Shown: positions 603-8,119 of the stretch, in pieces
How the letters are laid out: each line of letters begins with the position of its first letter
How positions within the stretch are numbered: the first letter of the stretch is position 1
Origin: Candidatus Polarisedimenticolia bacterium
GTDB lineage: Bacteria; Acidobacteriota; Polarisedimenticolia; Gp22-AA2
Direction: 5' to 3'
Assembly: GCA_035260145.1 (NCBI GenBank)
Contig: DATFVU010000082.1
Span: 1 to 25,807 of the forward strand
DNA length: 25,807 nt
Position numbers and translations under genes: made by a program
Notes under the pieces: generated by a model
Told to the model about the DNA's origin: nothing
The model's database searches: none
Seen by the model: the letters and a program-made list of their open reading frames with translations, nothing else

Positions 603-1459
603 TCCGCCTTCTTCAGCTCGGCCATGACCTTCTTCATGTCGTCCCAGACCTCCCGCTTGGCGGCCGGATTGCGCAGCAGGTAGGCCGGGTGGAAGGTCGG
701 CATGACGCGGATGCCGTCGATCTCAAGGAACGTTCCCCGGAGCCGCGTGATCGTGTCGCGGGTGCCCAGGACGGTCTGCGTGGCGGGCGTGCCGAGGCAG
801 ACGATCACGCGCGGCCGTATCGCCTTGATCTGCTGGAACAGGAACGGCGAGCATGTCGCGATCTCGTCCGGCAGCGGGGTGCGATTCTCCGGAGGCCGGC
901 ACTTCACGACGTTCGCGATGTAGACCTCATGCCTCTCCATCCCCATCGATTCGATGATCTTCGTCAGGAGCTGCCCCGCCCGCCCCACGAACGGCTCGCC
1001 CTTCCGGTCCTCGTCGGCCCCGGGCCCCTCGCCGATGAACATCAGGCGGGCCTCGGGATTCCCGACGCCGAACACGACTTGGGTGCGCTGGCGGCACAGT
1101 CCGCAGCGGGTGCAGTCGCCGATGTCGTCCCTTATCAGCGCGAGCGCCTCCGCAGGGGGCGCCTCCGGAGCGCGGATCTCCGCGAGCGGCGACGCCGATC
1201 GCTCCCCTCCCCTGCCCCGGCGTCCGGCCATCGGAGAGCGCTGTGGCTCGACCTCTTCGACGCCTCCGAACAGACCCGCCTGTGCGGCGGACCGGCGCTC
1301 CTCGCCCCGCGGAGGAGGTTCTTCTTGAGATCGAGCCTCTCCGACCGCAGGGGGAGGGTCATCCGGCCGCGCGACGATGGGGAGGTCGTCCACTCCCAGG
1401 AGTTGCAGCCATTCGAGCCGCGCCCGCAGCGTCTGGCGATTGTCCCGAGCGGCCTTCAC
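599..1459 (-). CDS. Uracil-DNA glycosylase, family 4 (Fe-S cluster type), with a low-complexity N-terminal extension
   Basis: Motifs CTRCGLC, IGEGPGADED, FVGRAGQLL, NVVKCRPPENRTP, C..FL..QI and TFHPAYLLRNP. GTG start with a GGAGG-containing RBS, overlapping the coaB stop as GTGA. Confidence 0.95.
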   Translation of the reverse strand: MKAARDNRQTLRARLEWLQLLGVDDLPIVARPDDPPPAVGEARSQEEPPPRGEERRSAAQAGLFGGVEEVEPQRSPMAGRRGRGGERSASPLAEIRAPEAPPAEALALIRDDIGDCTRCGLCRQRTQVVFGVGNPEARLMFIGEGPGADEDRKGEPFVGRAGQLLTKIIESMGMERHEVYIANVVKCRPPENRTPLPDEIATCSPFLFQQIKAIRPRVIVCLGTPATQTVLGTRDTITRLRGTFLEIDGIRVMPTFHPAYLLRNPAAKREVWDDMKKVMAELKKAE

Positions 1460-2828
1460 GATCCTCCCTCCCGCGGCGCCGCGGCCCGCCGGCGCCTCCG
1501 TCCCGCGGCGCCGGCGAGAAAGGGTTCCGCCAGATCGAGAATCCTCGCCGCCATCGCCTCCTTGGTCATGATCGGAAGCTCGCTCCTGTTGCCGTCCCGA
1601 TCGATCGTGAGCGCGCGGTTGGTATCGGCCTCGAATCCCTCGCCTTTCCGGCCGATCCGATTCGCCACGATCAGGTCGAGATTCTTCCGGCGCAGCTTGC
1701 CGAGGGCGTTCGCTTCGAGATCGCCGGTCTCCGCCGCGAAGCCGACCAGGACCTGTCCCGGCTTCTTGCGCCGTCCGAGCTCCTCCAGGATGTCGGGCGT
1801 CGGCTGGAGTCGCAGGATGACGGCCCGATCCGGGCCCGGCCGCTTCAGAGCCGCTCGTCGCAGCGACTCTTTCTTGATCTTGCGGGACGACCGCTCCTCC
1901 GGACGGTAGTCCGCCACCGCCGCCGCCTTCAGGACGAGATCCGCGCCCGGTGCCTGGTTCAGAGCGGCGCGGAACATCTCGTCCGCCGTCGTGACGAGCA
2001 CCAGGTTCACTCCGGCCGGCGGTGCGAGGTGGGTCGGGCCGGAGAGCAGCGTGACTTCGGCGCCGCGCGCCAGCGCCTCGGCGGCCAGGGCGTATCCCAT
2101 CCTGCCGGTGGACGGATTGCTCAGGTAACGGGCCGGGTCGAGCGCCTCGCGCGTCGGACCGGCGGTTACGAGGACTCGGCGGCCCTCAAGCGACCGCGAA
2201 GTTTTTTTTTAGCGATCGAGAGGGCCGCGTTCACGATTTCTTCCGGCTCGGCCATCCGGCCGATCCCTTCGTCGCCGCAGGCGAGATCCCCCGTCCCGGG
2301 CTCGATGACGCTCACGCCGCGCGACTTCAGAACGGCGAGATTGGCCTGCGTGGCGGGATGCTCCCACATCCAGACGTTCATCGCGGGCGCCACGGCCACG
2401 GGGGCCGTCACGGCCAGGTAGAACGTGCTCAGGAAATCGTCGGCGATGCCGTGCGCGAGCTTGGCGAGGGTGTCGGCGGTCGCCGGGGCGACCAGGAACA
2501 GGTCCAGCCCCCGCGCCAGGGCGATGTGCTGCACGTCGGCGCCGTGCGACAGATCCCATTGACCGGTGATCACCGATTGGCCGCTGAGCGTCTGGAGAGT
2601 GAGCGGCGTGATGAACCGCCGTCCCCCCGGCGTCATGATGACGTGCACCTCGGCCCCGGCCTTGACGAGGCCGCGCACCACTTCCGCGGCCTTGTAGGCC
2701 GCGATCCCCCCGGTCACGCCCAGCGCGATGCGCGTTTTCGACGCTCCCTGACCGGACGCGGCGCCGTCTTGCCCGCCGGCCGGTGCCTTCCTATCGCGAT
2801 CGTCCGGCCCGTCAGCTTCCCGGCTCAC
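1456..2828 (-). CDS. coaBC: Bifunctional CoaBC (PPC decarboxylase/PPC synthetase), interrupted by a -1 frameshift at an A9 run (2202-2210)
   Basis: The CoaC half (2828-2166) has GVTGGIAAYKA, HIALAR, APATADTLAKLAHGIAD, PAMNVWMW and LACGDEGIGRM. The -1 frame after the A9 reads TSRSLEGRRVLVTAGPTREALDPARYLSNPSTGRMGYALA and continues into ORF 2100-1456 (AAVADY, KIKK, VGFAAET, KNLDLIVAN). The joined product would be about 457 aa from the GTG at 2828. Confidence 0.93.
2202..2210 (-). other. A9 homopolymer at the frame-transition site in coaBC (candidate slippery site)
   Basis: The minus strand reads GCT AAA AAA AAA CTT. The -1 frame is closed by TAA at the 5' edge of the run and the 0 frame stops 12 codons later at 2166-2168, so the transition is confined to this short interval. 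Confidence 0.8.
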
Positions 2829-3084
2829 GCTCGTCCATCCCCGCGCCGTCCGCGGGATAGGTCTCGGTCGTCACCTCGGCGACCTCCTCGACCGCGTACT
2901 CCTCGGGGAAGGGTCCATAGCTGTAAGGAATGGCGCCGGCGAGCACTTCCTGCATGGCGACGGTCACCGGTTTGTGGGCCGTCGTCTCGACGCGCGGCCG
3001 GGCGCCGCGCTGCAATTGCTTGCAGCGCTCCCCCGCCACGGAGATGAACTCGAACTTGTTTCCGATATTCTCGGTCGCGATCAT
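2812..3084 (-). CDS. rpoZ: DNA-directed RNA polymerase subunit omega
   Basis: NKFEFISVAGERCKQLQRGARPRV...HKPVTVAMQEVLAG matches the omega pattern. GGAGG RBS at 3093-3089; lies between gmk and coaBC. Confidence 0.93.
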   Translation of the reverse strand: MIATENIGNKFEFISVAGERCKQLQRGARPRVETTAHKPVTVAMQEVLAGAIPYSYGPFPEEYAVEEVAEVTTETYPADGAGMDEREPGS

Positions 3085-3088
3085 GGAA

Positions 3089-3124
3089 CCTCCGCAAGAG
3101 AGCCGGTCCAGGAGCGGTATTCTA
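3089..3124 (-). promoter_or_regulatory. Candidate -10 box (TAGAAT, 3124-3119) and RBS (GGAGG, 3093-3089) upstream of rpoZ
   Basis: AT-rich hexamer matching TAnnnT in the gmk-rpoZ intergenic region. No convincing -35 box. Confidence 0.4.
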
Positions 3125-3199
3125 GACGAAAAGGTGCTTCGGATCGAGCCGTCGGCCGAACGGGCCCGGGGCGGCCGGTCGCGGCGTCGGATGGACGGA

Positions 3200-3871
3200 C
3201 TAGGAGAGGCCGGCGAAGTCGCGCAGGATCGGGTCCAGGACCGCCCGCCTCAGCGCCGTCCGGCAGCGCGCCGCCAAAGCGATCGCGCGCAGCTGCCGGT
3301 AGGCGGCTTCGAAGTCGTCGTTGATGATCACGTAGTCATAGGCGGGACTCTTCTCGACTTCCCCACCGGCCAGTCCCAGTCTGCGGGCGACCTCCTGGGG
3401 CCCGTCCGTGCCGCGCTTCTGGAGACGTTCCTTCAGCGCCATCCTGCCGGGGGGCAGGATGAAGATCAGGATCGCCTCCGGGATCATCCGGTGGATGTTC
3501 AGGGCGCCCTGCGTGTCGATGTCGAGCAGGATGTCGCGGCCCCGGGCCGCGGCCTCCTGCACCGCCACGGCCGAGGTGCCGTAGAGATGCCCCCCCACCT
3601 CGGCCCACTCGATGAAATCCCCCCGATCGCGGCGGCGCTCGAAATCCGGGCGGTCGATGAAGTGGTAGTCCACTCCCTCCTTCTCGCCGGCGCGCGGGGC
3701 CCGGGTGGTGAACGAGACGGAAAACTCGATGCCCCGGTCCTCCTGGAGGAGTCGCTTGCAAAGCGTCGTCTTGCCCGCGCCCGAGGGCGCGGAGATCACC
3801 AGGACCGATCCGCGCGCCGACCCCGGCGCCCCGGGCGTCCCCGAGCCCGCCGTCATATCGACGTCCCGCAC
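3200..3871 (-). CDS. gmk: Guanylate kinase
   Basis: P-loop SAPSGAGKTT, SVSFTTRAPRAGEKEGVDYHF, EWAEVGGHLYGT, LLDIDTQGA and YDYVIINDD. The start could instead be ATG 3856. Confidence 0.97.
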   Translation of the reverse strand: MRDVDMTAGSGTPGAPGSARGSVLVISAPSGAGKTTLCKRLLQEDRGIEFSVSFTTRAPRAGEKEGVDYHFIDRPDFERRRDRGDFIEWAEVGGHLYGTSAVAVQEAAARGRDILLDIDTQGALNIHRMIPEAILIFILPPGRMALKERLQKRGTDGPQEVARRLGLAGGEVEKSPAYDYVIINDDFEAAYRQLRAIALAARCRTALRRAVLDPILRDFAGLS

Positions 3872-3913
3872 GCAACCCCAGTCAAGAGCTCCTCCCGGAC
3901 GATCGACCCGGCC

Positions 3914-4825
3914 TCACTCCAGGTTCTGCGCCTGCTCGCGAATCTTCTCCACCTCCGCCTTGATGACGAGGGCCTGCTGGCAGATCGGCAGCGCTTCCGC
4001 CTTGGACGAAATCGTGTTCGCCTCGCGGTTCATCTCCTGCATGATGAAATCGAGAGTCTTGCCGATGGGACCGCCCGGTCGGGCGAGCGTCTCCTCCATC
4101 TGCTTCAGGTAGCCCTGAAGCCGGACCAGCTCCTCCGTGATGTCGGCGCGCCCCGCCAGGAGGGCCACCTCCTGGGCCAGGCGACCCTCCTCGACGACCC
4201 GGCCGCCGTCGAGCAGGACCGCGAGCCGCTCCTTGATCCGGCGCGCGTACGACTCGGGAAGGCCGCGCGCCTCCGCCTCGATGCGCGAGGCGGCTTCGCG
4301 AATCGTGCGCAGGCGGTCGTTCAGATCCTCCACCAGGCGACGTCCTTCCGAGGCTCGCATGGTGTCGTAGGCGTCGAGCGCCGCCCGCATGGCCTCGGTC
4401 AGGACCGCCTCCACCACGCCGTCATCCGGCGCGGCGCCGGCCTGAATCGACACCACGCCCGGCAGGCCCAGGACCGTCTCCAGGCCGACGCTGCCCCTGA
4501 GGGCGAACTCCTTCTTGAGGGAGGCGGCACCTTTAAGATATTCGGCGACGAGACTCTCATTGACCACGACGCGTGCGGGGGACGGGAGCGACGAGACGAT
4601 CGCCGTGACGATGTCGATCCGGGCACGCGTTACCCGCGCCTGAATCAGGGCGCGGAGGCGCGGCTCCAGCAGGCCGACTTCGCCGGGGAGTCTCATCTTG
4701 ATATCCAGGAACCTGTGGTTGACCCCCTTCAGCTCGACTCGCGCCGCCACACCGTTGCGCTCCGCCGTCCCCTGCCCGAAGCCGGTCATGCTTTTCACCT
4801 GGACCCCATTCCGCTCGGATGACAT
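3914..4825 (-). CDS. yicC: YicC/YloC family endoribonuclease
   Basis: KSMTGFG...ELKGVNHRFLDI at the N-terminus; RADITEELVRL, GKTLDFIMQEMNREANTISSK and EKIREQAQNLE at the C-terminus. Conserved position upstream of gmk. The true start may be a few codons downstream. Confidence 0.93.
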   Translation of the reverse strand: MSSERNGVQVKSMTGFGQGTAERNGVAARVELKGVNHRFLDIKMRLPGEVGLLEPRLRALIQARVTRARIDIVTAIVSSLPSPARVVVNESLVAEYLKGAASLKKEFALRGSVGLETVLGLPGVVSIQAGAAPDDGVVEAVLTEAMRAALDAYDTMRASEGRRLVEDLNDRLRTIREAASRIEAEARGLPESYARRIKERLAVLLDGGRVVEEGRLAQEVALLAGRADITEELVRLQGYLKQMEETLARPGGPIGKTLDFIMQEMNREANTISSKAEALPICQQALVIKAEVEKIREQAQNLE

Positions 4826-4849
4826 CCGGTTCCGGCCCGCCTTCCCGCG

Positions 4850-6109
4850 TCAGGCGACGCGCGTGCGTTCGCGCGCGCCGATCATATCCCAGGCGCTGCG
4901 GGCGACCCTGTCGATAGCCCCCGGCGCGCCCAGTCTCGAGCGCACCCCCGAGAGATCGCGCCGCATCGTCGCGGCGACCGTCGGATCGGTCAGGATGCGT
5001 CGGAGCTCATGGGAGATCCTCTGCGGGGTGCACTCCCCCTGCACCAATTCCGGAACGATGCGCGATCCGGCGATCAGGTTCGGCATCCCCACGTGCGGCA
5101 CGTCCGAGATCAGACGGGCCAGCGCGAACGTCAGCGGGTTCATCCGATAGACGATGACCATCGGAACCTCCAGGAGCGCGGTCTCCAGCGTCGCCGTCCC
5201 CGAGGCGACCACGGCCGCGTCGCACGCCGCCACGGCGTCGTACCGGTCCTCGCCCAGAAGGACGCATCCGAGATCGGCTTTGCGATCGCCCGAGGCCTGC
5301 GCTTCCCGACGCTCTTCGCGCACGATGCCCTCGACCGCGTCCCTGGCCAGGGTCGGGGCGATCGGGATCAGGAACTGCAGATCGCGGAACTCCTCGCGCA
5401 GCCGCCGCGCCGCGGCCAGCATGATCGCCAGATGGGCGCGCAGCTCGTTCATCCGGCTGCCGGGCAGAAGGGCCACGGTCGGCCGGAGAGGATCGAGTCC
5501 GGCGGGCCTGAGCGTCTGCTCCCGGGTGCGGGTGGTCCGGACGAGGTCCAGGAGCGGGTGCCCCACGAATTCCACCGAAACGCCGGCCTTCCTGTACAAC
5601 TCCTCTTCGAACGGCAGGATGACGAGCATGCGGCGGACGACGGTCGCGATTCGCCGCACGCGCCCCTTGCGCCAGGCCCAGACCTGCGGGCTGACGAAAT
5701 AGAGGACCGGGACGCCTGCCCGCCGGGCCCTCTGCGCGAGCCGAATGTTGAAATCGGGGTAATCGATCAGCAGCGCCAGGTCGGGCCGCTCCTCCGAATC
5801 GATGAGCCCGCGGGCCTCGCGGTAGGCGTTCCAGATGGCGCGGGCGCTCCCGAGAACCTCGAGGAAACCGGTCACGCCGATGAGCCCCGCGTCGCCCAGC
5901 GGTCGAAGTCCTGCGGCGCGCATGGAGGGCCCGCCGATCCCGATGAACTGGACGCGACCGTCCCAGGCCTCGTTCTCGCCGCCGCCGGTGGCGTTCCTCG
6001 CCGCCTGGCGTTCCGCCTTCCCCTGCATCGCCCGCATGACCAGGCTGCCGTAGAGATCGCCGGAGGCCTCGCCCGCGACGATCAGCACGCGGGCGCATCG
6101 ACCGGTCAC
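4850..6109 (-). CDS. lpxB: Lipid-A-disaccharide synthase
   Basis: IVAGEASGDLYG, LIDYPDFNIRLA, YFVSPQVWAWRKGR, ILPFEEELY, FVGHPLLD, LLPGSR, ASGTATLE, GMPNLIAG and VPELVQ. GTG start with a GGAG RBS. Confidence 0.96.
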   Translation of the reverse strand: MTGRCARVLIVAGEASGDLYGSLVMRAMQGKAERQAARNATGGGENEAWDGRVQFIGIGGPSMRAAGLRPLGDAGLIGVTGFLEVLGSARAIWNAYREARGLIDSEERPDLALLIDYPDFNIRLAQRARRAGVPVLYFVSPQVWAWRKGRVRRIATVVRRMLVILPFEEELYRKAGVSVEFVGHPLLDLVRTTRTREQTLRPAGLDPLRPTVALLPGSRMNELRAHLAIMLAAARRLREEFRDLQFLIPIAPTLARDAVEGIVREERREAQASGDRKADLGCVLLGEDRYDAVAACDAAVVASGTATLETALLEVPMVIVYRMNPLTFALARLISDVPHVGMPNLIAGSRIVPELVQGECTPQRISHELRRILTDPTVAATMRRDLSGVRSRLGAPGAIDRVARSAWDMIGARERTRVA

Positions 6110-6812
6110 GGCGCGCTCCGGGGCGGTACCCCGGCGACGGCCGCATGACCATGGCCGTGTGACCGGGCCTCCGCCTCCTCGGTGAGGCGATCGAGGGCCT
6201 GCTGCAGGGCCTGGCGCTTCACCTCCATGCCCTGGCGGCCGGCGTCCGCCGGCACTTCGATCGGCTCACCGTAGGCGATGACCGCGCGCGCCAGCGGGAA
6301 CGGGATCTGGAACGCGTCCCAGGACCGAAGGTTTTTTTTTTAGAGGCCGCGAAGGCGACGGGCACGATGGGCGCGCGTCCCAGGCGGGCGGCTTCGATCA
6401 CTCCCATCTGCACCCGATGACGGGGACCGCGCGGCCCATCGGTGGCGAACGCGATGTCCCGGCCGCCCCGCACGTGGCGGATCATCTCCTTCAATCCCGC
6501 CACGCCTCCCCGTCCCGTCGAGCCCCGTACCATCTGATGCCCGAACTTCTCCAGCGTGCGCGAGACGTATTCCCCGTCCCGGTGAAGGCTGCTCAGGACG
6601 ACCAGCTTGCGGCCGTAGGCCTGCCCCAGATAGGAATAGGTCATCATCAAGAGTTGGTCGTGATAGAAGGCGTGCACGTAGGGTCGCTTCGCCTCATGCA
6701 GATCGAGGACGACGCGATCGCGGACGACGGTCCAGCGGAGCGTCCGGTGAAGGAAGCGCACCAGAGTGCTCGCCAGGATTGGTCCCAGCCAGAGTGAGAG
6801 TCGACCGCCCAG
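6106..6812 (-). CDS. DUF374 / LpxJ-like lipid acyltransferase, interrupted by a -1 frameshift at an A10 run (6332-6341)
   Basis: The 0 frame has YHDQLL, SLHRDGEY, VRGSTGRGG and TDGPRGPRH. After the A10 the -1 frame reads NLRSWDAFQIPFPLARAVIAYGEPIEVP...LQQALDRLTEEAE, the usual DUF374 C-terminus, and ends at TGA 6108-6106 overlapping the lpxB GTG. The start is proposed at CTG 6812 (the ORF track gives GTG 6761). The joined product would be about 235 aa. Confidence 0.85.
6332..6341 (-). other. A10 homopolymer at the frame-transition site in the DUF374 gene (candidate slippery site)
   Basis: The minus strand reads TCT AAA AAA AAA ACC. The -1 frame is closed by TAA at the 5' edge of the run, and the conserved SWD..IP.P motif begins a few codons later in the -1 frame. 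Confidence 0.8.
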
Positions 6813-6817
6813 CGCTC

Positions 6818-6868
6818 CCTCCTTCGCCGCTCGTCATCGCGCCGGCGCCCCGGCCGGGCATTATATCA
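6818..6868 (-). promoter_or_regulatory. Extended -10 promoter (TG-A-TATAAT, 6868-6860) and RBS (AAGGAGG, 6824-6818) for the DUF374-lpxB-yicC-gmk run
   Basis: Consensus TATAAT with a TGn extension in a GC-rich intergenic region, plus a full-length SD 5 nt before CTG 6812. Confidence 0.65.
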
Positions 6869-6883
6869 ACCGGACAGAGCGCC

Positions 6884-8119
6884 TCACGCCGGCACGCGGC
6901 GGGACGGCTGAAATCGATCGAGAACACCCCACAGCCCGTACGACGCCACGAGGAGTATCACCGGGTCGGCCGGAGAGCGAATGCGTCCATCGGCCCAGTA
7001 GATGGCGGCCGTGAGGGTCACGGCCAGGACGGGAGCGAGAAGCGGCAGGATGCGCCCGTCCCGGCACCGAATGGCCAGGAAAAGACCCGCGGCAAAGAGG
7101 CCCAGGACGGGCAGGAATGCCAGGGGAGCGAGCCATCGCTGCAGGGCGGAATCCAGCTCGGGGAACGGATTCCACAACCTCAAGAGTTTGCTCCCGACGA
7201 GCGCCGGCATGTCGCCCGGCGATGTCCTCATGTAGTGGAGCGCGCGCTCGAAGTACACGCGATCTTGCTCCGTTTCGGGCAGCCGGGAGACCGCCTCATC
7301 CCTTTCCCTTCCACCGGGGAGAAATCGGCCGCGCAGTCCGGGATCGGCCGCAACGATCGCATTGTTCCCCTCCCATAGGACAAGGCCGCCCATGGTGGTG
7401 AGCGGCACGAACCGCCCGTGCACGCGATAGTTCCGTACTCCCCAGGGAAGCAGGACAAGACAAAACACCACGAGAGCGACGGCCGTGCGCAGCCACCGGC
7501 GCCCCGGGACGCCGAGAAGCCAGAGGAGACCCAGGGGAAGCAGGAATCCCATGTTGGGTCGGGTCAATGTTGCAAGCGCGCTCAGGCATGACCAGCCCGC
7601 GGTCCAGCGCAGCGAGTCTCGGGCCCTGGTGAGGGCGGCGATCGTGGCGGTGGTCAGAAGCGCGCATAGAGGCTCCGACACGAGACTTCCCGTCCAGAGG
7701 ATGGCGTGCGGGTACACGGCGCAGGCGAGCGCGGCGGTGACGCCGATCCGAGCGCCGAGCCAGGAGCTTCCGAGAGTGAGCAGCACCGAGCAGGTCAGCG
7801 CCCCCACGACTGCCTGCGTGACCCGGGCCGCCGGCCAGCTATGTCCGACGAGAGAGTAAACGCCGGCGAGGAGGATCGGAAAGCCCGGGGCCCGTCTCGA
7901 GCGGTACCCCTCCGCGTCCACGTACGGCCCTCCCTGCGTCAGGCGCGTCGCGATGCTGTCGTACAGGAGGGCATCGTCCCGGGGCGGCGTGGCCAGACCC
8001 ACGACGCCCGTCTGGAAGGCCAGACGCGCCGCGAGAGCGAGAACGAAGACCGCCGCGTGAACCCACAGCCGGCGCCTCCCGCGGAGACTGTCGGGGGCCG
8101 ACCCGGCGACAGCGGACAT
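6884..8119 (-). CDS. Multi-TM GT-C fold glycosyltransferase (ArnT/PMT-like, GT39/GT83-like)
   Basis: N-terminal TM followed by a DD-containing loop ([12 protein letters not shown]), RAPGFP, LVSEPL, LTRPN and PWGVRNY...GLVLWEGNN, with many hydrophobic segments. I placed the start at ATG 8119 because the ORF-track extension to 8341 overlaps the divergent gene. Confidence 0.75.

Follow-up and report, generated by a model that had tools for sequence, protein, structure and literature searches.

A frame break at a conserved A-run in LpxJ-like acyltransferase genes of Acidobacteriota, very probably a site of programmed recoding

How does a bacterium obtain a complete enzyme from a gene whose reading frame is broken at a run of adenines? 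This question is raised by a DUF374/LpxJ-like acyltransferase gene, a putative lipid A late acyltransferase, on the minus strand of contig DATFVU010000082.1 from a Candidatus Polarisedimenticolia bacterium. The window, by which we mean the whole stretch of 25,807 nucleotides that was analysed, is contig 82 of a metagenome-assembled genome (MAG) of 2.49 Mb in 385 contigs, which is 70%-complete and has 68.3% guanine plus cytosine (GC). An earlier note on this DNA had claimed that the gene is broken at a run of ten A's (A10), that its conserved C-terminus continues in the -1 frame and that this frame ends on the start codon of lpxB. We conclude that the A-run is very probably a programmed recoding site, whether the machine that shifts the frame is RNA polymerase or the ribosome. 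The parts of the gene are the following:

6332..6812, minus strand: DUF374/LpxJ-like gene, 0-frame part, from the start through the A-run, with the blocks that carry H58, D86 and D132
6332..6341, minus strand: A10 slippery run, the probable recoding site (0 frame TCT AAA AAA AAA A); the same codon carries A9-A11 in 45 other genomes
6106..6333, minus strand: -1-frame C-terminal part, beginning NLRSWDAFQIPFP, with the presumed W172/D173 and with P178; ends at TGA 6108-6106
6219..6331, minus strand: unconserved 0-frame tail after the run, beginning TFGPGTRSRSRSRW, the end of the unshifted, truncated product; stop at 6221-6219

The break at the A-run and its distribution

In the 0 frame the gene reads ..AFAASKKK, followed by TFGPGTRSRSRSRW and the stop. 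The -1 frame reads NLRSWDAFQIPFPLARAVIAYGEPIEVP, is entered at the ninth A of the run, which gives NLRSWDAFQIPFP, and its TGA overlaps the lpxB GTG (6109-6107) in the four nucleotides GTGA, 6109-6106. Both the break at the run and the ending on lpxB were thus found as the earlier note had described them, and its statement that A11 or A8 would restore the frame is also correct. The run is the longest A/T homopolymer of the assembly, which holds three A/T runs of at least nine nucleotides in total.

Is the break peculiar to this genome? The N-terminal (0-frame) and C-terminal pieces of orthologues were located by tblastn in the genomes of relatives, and the resulting DUF374 set consists of 68 Acidobacteriota genome orthologues, the window's included, 46 with the run and 22 without it. 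All 46 carry A9-A11 at this codon and need the identical -1 shift, whereas all 22 without the run are in frame. The run has nine A's in 33 of these genomes, ten in 11 and eleven in two, and it is never shorter. Its phase in the 0 frame is 0 in 33 genomes and 2 in 13, and the frame offset is constant. Because length and phase vary while the offset never does, the differences in length must come from substitutions at the edges of the run and not from insertions or deletions. The 29 relatives for which both pieces were found divide in the same way: 21 have A9 or A10 with the C-terminus in the -1 frame, and the 8 without the run are in frame. In the phylum sample of 401 genomes, 363 have a homologue, and A9 or longer followed by TGGGAY (the Trp-Asp codons) occurs at the DUF374 locus in 31 of the 363, which is an unbiased frequency; all 31 loci were checked. 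The unpublished genome G062 was counted in the tally of homologues alone. The run-bearing genomes belong to at least ten GTDB families in several classes and include the closed 2.4 Mb genome G043, and their contigs show three naming styles (scaffold_, k141_ and NODE_). On a maximum-likelihood tree of 71 orthologues, 15 changes of run state are needed, of which well-supported branches require at least nine. Both the window's family and f35 include several losses of the run, which is scattered elsewhere on the gene tree; no frequencies can be taken from this tree, since its phylum-level rows were enriched for run-bearers by selection.

The same picture was obtained from metagenome proteins (clusters from JGI, ENA, Logan and NCBI). 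The earlier note had proposed to test whether annotated DUF374 proteins often end soon after an SKKK-like motif, and among the best 120 cluster representatives 105 do so, ending in KKK plus an out-of-frame tail. A further 11 have no in-frame Trp-Asp and 4 are in frame, so that about 116 of the 120 have the truncated 0-frame form. We inspected the DNA of three of the four in-frame representatives. One is an in-frame A10 allele, TCC-A10-CT, present in two samples (L128/L129; JGI samples 3300012929 and 3300015264), which is the sister of an A9 frame-broken relative on the tree. In the other two the run is lost, and their contigs have GAA AAG AAG or GGG AAA AAG with a length exactly that of the predicted shifted product. 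The in-frame descendants read S-(E/G/K)-K-K-T-LRSWD and have the exact length expected of a product made with one added A or with a -1 shift.

Could the run be a contingency locus, at which slippage of DNA polymerase toggles the gene between ON and OFF, the assemblies showing the OFF state? Tracts of A9-A11 are mutable in DNA, the in-frame A10 allele stands beside A9 relatives, and genes for lipid A modification are known to be phase-variable in some pathogens. However, a toggling tract is difficult to reconcile with a -1 state that is shared by all 46 genomes and by about 116 of the 120 protein clusters, with no +1 state among them. Moreover, the lengths A9, A10 and A11 differ by flanking substitutions that preserve the offset. 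The length variation that the earlier note had raised as a possibility, if taken as a change in the DNA in the manner of phase variation, therefore did not stand, and we consider phase variation highly improbable.

An artefact of sequencing or assembly would be another explanation: the A-runs would be under-called by one base and the genes would truly be in frame. Every break does need one additional base, as systematic under-calling would give, and most of the genomes are short-read MAGs. Against this, the offset is identical at A9, A10 and A11, it occurs under all three contig naming styles and in the closed genome, and the in-frame A10 did assemble where it exists. In addition, 26 G/C runs of 8-9 nucleotides are unbroken inside coding-like open reading frames (ORFs) of the assembly. 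Even if the genes were in frame, a pure A10-A12 conserved in a phylum with 68% GC would imply selection for a slippery tract. An artefact thus appears even less probable than phase variation.

The segment beyond the run

Why should the cell need the segment encoded after the run? The DUF374 membership proposed in the earlier note is well founded: the gene matches PF04028 with E 4.9e-26 and 90.6 bits (cut-off 26.8) over residues 74-138 of the 0-frame product, and the residues essential in LpxJ are invariant at identical spacing. Neither of the two pieces was matched by any NCBIfam model. An alignment of 25 in-frame orthologues has H58, D86, D132, W172, D173 and P178 invariant. Mutagenesis of Rickettsia typhi LpxJ, which belongs to a family without the HX4D motif, showed that W60, H61, D86, D132, W172 and D173 are required for the 3' secondary acylation of lipid A, and W172A and D173A abolish the activity (PMC6148475). 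In the read-through product of the window the distances D86-D132 (46 residues) and D132-D173 (41 residues) are identical to those of R. typhi LpxJ. The His and the two Asp residues are encoded in the 0 frame and the Trp-Asp pair only in the -1 frame, where the invariant pair sits 4-5 residues past the run. From its spacing and invariance, and not from a direct alignment to RT0047, we infer that this pair corresponds to the essential W172/D173.

The structural prediction points the same way. We used the natural in-frame orthologue P0079, whose AlphaFold model has a mean predicted local distance difference test score (pLDDT) of 89.6 and a predicted template-modelling score (pTM) of 0.85. In this model the segment after the run forms three strands and a long helix, with pLDDT of 87-98 up to residue 220. 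Foldseek matched the model to 1IUQ, PatA (5OCE/5F2Z), PlsC (5KYM) and LpxM (5KNK) with E-values of 1e-6 to 5e-6 and template-modelling (TM) scores of about 0.5-0.58 over about 240 columns; the whole modelled chain is accordingly predicted to have a fold of the GPAT/PatA/PlsC/LpxM type. Since both the essential residues and a folded segment lie past the run, the unshifted product should be inactive.

The run itself is also unusual for this genome. Across about 1100 long ORFs of the genome, AAA accounts for only 13.4% of the Lys codons, and none of the 28 other KKK triplets is AAA AAA AAA. That a pure A-run has been kept over such distances therefore indicates selection on the nucleotides themselves. 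On both sides of the run the differences between orthologues have the pattern of coding sequence: among 16 frame-broken family members, the third positions of the -1 frame hold 49% of the pairwise differences in the 150 nucleotides downstream, and those of the 0 frame hold 50% upstream. This bias indicates protein-coding constraint on both parts, each in its own frame. The 0-frame tail is unconserved; among the orthologues it runs for up to 66 codons beyond the Trp codon, and in two of them it stops before that point. Is the gene perhaps a pseudogene in decay, or is it split into two halves that are made separately? Gene callers do annotate only the truncated ORF. A pseudogene would not be expected to have a third-position bias in the -1 frame that matches that of the upstream part, nor a break maintained across families, and DUF374 is present as a single copy in the genome. 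Separate halves would need a second start. In the window a TAA lies in the -1 frame at the 5' edge of the run, and no independent start was found between the -1-frame TAA and the invariant Trp-Asp in the window or in the orthologues inspected; the -1-frame ORF that is listed for the window begins only at GTG 6255, beyond the Trp-Asp codons. We regard this as the least probable of all the explanations considered. The view in the earlier note that the -1 frame is the real continuation of the gene is upheld by its conservation in 45 other genomes, by purifying selection and by the essential residues that are encoded only there.

A second site in coaBC and the choice between two machines

More questions are raised by a second break of the same kind, which is found in the same window at the junction of the two halves of coaBC:

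2828-1456, minus strand: coaBC, with the CoaB part (2202-1456) in the -1 frame
2202..2210, minus strand: A9 slippery run at the CoaC/CoaB junction, where the frame breaks by -1 throughout the family (21 members with both parts)

The two halves match positions 3-183 and 182-389 of TIGR00521, and the CoaB motif VLVTAGPTREALDP is read in the -1 frame. Within the family, both parts were found in 21 members and each of these has the -1 break, 20 at A9 and one at A10; outside the family 8 of 8 genomes are without the coaBC run and in frame. Because the synthesis of coenzyme A is essential and coaB is single-copy in complete relatives, decoding through the A9 must work in these cells. This bears on phase variation as well, since a gene that is essential, single-copy and broken throughout these 21 members must be ON in most cells. 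Two relatives, G003 (4.6 Mb, 100% complete) and G008, have no A9 or longer in their genomes apart from the DUF374 and coaBC sites. In G008 (L072, G008:C40, about 1337-1356) we also observed that the CoaC part is without about 49 residues (query residues 106-154) and changes frame there. This gap may be a local mis-assembly or a deletion in the MAG; the A9 junction to CoaB is still -1 in it.

The two kinds of site also resemble each other in their flanks. A T precedes the run in 27 of the 46 DUF374 sites (59%) and in 17 of the 21 coaBC sites (81%), although T makes up only 8% of the third codon positions in this genome. Wherever a T was combined with a phase-0 run, the -1 frame had a TAA at the 5' edge of the run. 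It may be that the T also weakens the upstream end of the RNA-DNA hybrid. At all but two of these 46 DUF374 and 21 coaBC loci, a C or a G directly follows the run.

How would the full-length enzyme be made? In the model that we propose, the genomic frame is one base short at a run of at least nine A's, and standard decoding would lead to a protein of about 200 residues without the Trp-Asp block. At the run, a fraction of expression events would move into the -1 frame and would give a full-length product of about 235 residues, ..SKKK-N-LRSWD.., which would be the active enzyme and whose stop overlaps the lpxB start. RNA polymerase would slip on the A/T homopolymer and add one A in part of the mRNAs, and the efficiency of this slippage would cap the output of active late acyltransferase together with any coupled translation of lpxB. 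Slippage that adds one A and a -1 frameshift predict the same protein, ..S-K-K-K-N-L-R-S-W-D.., and the product does not tell the two machines apart. If the site is one of recoding, we lean towards RNA polymerase as the main agent, and a smaller though considerable part of that probability goes to ribosomal -1 frameshifting or sliding on A_AAA_AAA. Three observations favour the polymerase: the frame-broken orthologues all keep at least nine A's, though seven make a slippery heptamer; no stimulator could be detected by folding, as a Shine-Dalgarno (SD)-like element or with Rfam; and reported shifting rises with run length, with yields that are compatible with an essential gene. In reporter constructs the efficiency was 10% at seven A's, 40% at nine and 63% at eleven (PMC3711429).

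Could ribosomes alone do this work on the unedited mRNA, by shifting -1 or sliding on A_AAA_AAA or A_AAA_AAC? A heptamer of the form X_XXY_YYZ stands in the 0 frame for both run phases (33 and 13 genomes), and both T_AAA_AAA and A_AAA_AAA count among the recognised frameshift heptamers (PMC3711429). However, no orthologue is broken at only 7-8 A's or at A_AAA_AAG, as would be expected if a heptamer were sufficient. The usual yield of an unstimulated heptamer is a few percent, little for an essential gene like coaBC. A purely translational shift, itself a sub-case of recoding, is in our opinion possible but rather unlikely.

The earlier note had pointed to one candidate for a stimulator:

6307..6322, minus strand: 6-bp hairpin, CTGGGA (6322-6317)-CGCG-TTCCAG (6312-6307), 9 nucleotides after the run

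The hairpin is present where the earlier note had placed it, but its proposed role as a stimulator did not hold, since it is made by the W-D-x-F-Q codons and is not conserved. It also occurs in the in-frame L016 and L017 and is missing from the frame-broken lineages f2 and f35. The 45 nucleotides downstream of the run fold no better than shuffled sequences in the window (z +0.7), and the mean z over the orthologues is -0.28 in the 46 with the run compared with -0.94 in the 22 without it. Neither a conserved downstream structure nor a conserved upstream SD-like signal was found among the orthologues, and a search of positions 1300-7000 against Rfam, where a frameshift element might be recognised, gave no match at E up to 1.

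Several points weigh against programmed recoding by polymerase slippage and have to be set beside the evidence for it. The slippage itself is deduced from genome sequences. The choice between polymerase and ribosome is built on indirect arguments, and an A9 in whatever phase contains A_AAA_AAA. The A9 pattern had a part in the choice of the phylum-level loci, a procedure in which shorter slippery sites could be missed; among the 29 relatives with both parts and 16 further orthologues, all taken without this pattern, no frame break at a shorter run was found. The in-frame A10 allele of L128/L129 means that the run changes its length in DNA over evolutionary time. Lastly, the role in the late acylation of lipid A is suggested by family membership and by the adjacency of lpxB.

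If slippage by RNA polymerase operates at both sites, could it also be regulated? Recoding might, as a matter of speculation, tune the acylation of lipid A. Taking this further, the efficiency could respond to the state of the cell through nucleotide pools, temperature, growth rate or accessory factors of RNA polymerase, and would then define a "slippage regulon" in this Polarisedimenticolia family that co-tunes two unrelated essential pathways by one signal, namely lipid A late acylation, with its lpxB coupling, and coenzyme A synthesis by way of the CoaC : CoaBC ratio. We find such a regulon doubtful. Were it to exist, the recurrent gains and losses of this run across Acidobacteriota, with at least nine changes on the gene tree, would represent an evolutionary retuning of envelope acylation.

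Neighbouring genes, other A9 runs and known systems

The DUF374 gene is the middle one of three consecutive genes on the minus strand, and its neighbours are these:

8341-6884, minus strand: PMT_2/ArnT-like glycosyltransferase, in front of the DUF374 gene
4850..6109, minus strand: lpxB (PF02684, E 2.3e-92), with a GTG start that overlaps the -1-frame stop

Translation of the DUF374 gene probably starts at CTG 6812-6810, 5 nucleotides after AAGGAGG (6824-6818). The aligned start codon of relatives is TTG, GTG or ATG, and CTG in one. ORF finders chose the GTG at 6761, with which a conserved N-terminal helix would be lost. The overlap of four nucleotides between DUF374 and lpxB is also found in an in-frame relative. 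Elsewhere in the window there are two more GTGA/ATGA overlaps, and lpxB and yicC are without one.

Other A9 runs were examined as well. The third A9 run (G000:C202:2442-2450, L132) was rejected as a recoding site, as it is in frame and no long ORF lies in another frame. This run belongs to a prophage, where it precedes the stop codon of a Mu-like portal gene (PF06074) by 21 codons; further downstream are a Mu F-like gene and one of the Mu protease-like type (Mu-like_Pro, prophage I protein). In the GC-rich relatives G004 and G025 (L055-L062) all remaining A9 runs are directly followed by a GC-rich inverted repeat. Judged by eye and not by a terminator scan, these runs resemble T-tracts that would belong to intrinsic terminators encoded on the other strand. 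The closed genome G043 has further A9 loci (L063, L065/L069 and L067). One run separates two ORFs in different frames, of which the first matches the C-terminal half and the second the N-terminal half of the N6_N4 DNA methylase profile. Two more are identical and sit within a repeated element, and another is the -1 junction of two long ORFs without a Pfam match.

What does the break mean for those who work with these genomes? Annotation presents the truncated ORFs as "LPLAT-like uncharacterized protein" or "DUF374 domain-containing protein". In metabolic reconstructions from Acidobacteriota MAGs the late acylation of lipid A, and in this family the CoaB half as well, look broken or missing. 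The locus is also a natural system for asking why most translation products of an enzyme would be inactive, and it could reveal whether homopolymer slippage acts as a tunable expression valve for the composition of the outer membrane. The coaBC site would be a second, family-specific case, in which decoding by slippage would be efficient enough for an essential gene.

Programmed slippage at A-runs is in itself already known, from Thermus dnaX, Shigella mxiE, insertion sequence (IS) elements and the clusters of Antonov et al. 2013. Only a small number of non-mobile bacterial genes have conserved recoding sites (prfB, dnaX, copA and a handful more), and DUF374 is an enzyme of the cell envelope. 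Our literature searches, in which the listed matches to LpxJ with frameshift and to DUF374 were judged by title and abstract, found no publication on such recoding in DUF374/LpxJ, in coaBC or in Acidobacteriota. A similar arrangement is that of mxiE and spa13/spa33 of Shigella flexneri, where transcriptional slippage at a homopolymer of nine nucleotides fuses two ORFs into a functional protein and caps its yield (Penno et al. 2005, 2006, cited in PMC3711429). Those genes are plasmid-borne virulence regulators of one genus, whereas the DUF374 site occurs in at least ten families and in a cell-envelope enzyme. The dnaX gene of Thermus thermophilus (Larsen et al. 2000, as described in PMC3711429) is alike in having an A9 in a chromosomal housekeeping gene of a GC-rich bacterium, with a conserved run and products from different frames. 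It belongs to another gene family and pathway than DUF374, and by that description its standard frame gives the long tau and slippage the shorter gamma, whereas here slippage would be needed for the full-length enzyme. The poly-A clusters of Antonov et al. 2013 (PMC3711429), such as that of Mg-chelatase, share the conserved -1 transitions at A7-A11 in non-mobile genes. Three acidobacterial genomes were surveyed in that study, and DUF374/LpxJ and coaBC are absent from its main text, to which this statement applies and not to the supplementary tables, which were not searched.

The -1 frameshift in E. coli dnaX, at A_AAA_AAG, is similar in its poly-A slippery heptamer and in its direction. There, however, an SD-like element lies upstream and a stem-loop downstream; at DUF374 neither is detectable and the run always has at least nine A's. 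In insect endosymbionts such as Buchnera and Blochmannia, frameshifts at poly(A) tracts are rescued by transcriptional slippage. There too genes remain functional although an A-run puts them out of frame by one base. However, the genomes of endosymbionts are AT-rich and drifting and their A-runs arise from mutation pressure, whereas the run described here is held against a background of 68% GC, and its persistence against that background indicates positive maintenance.

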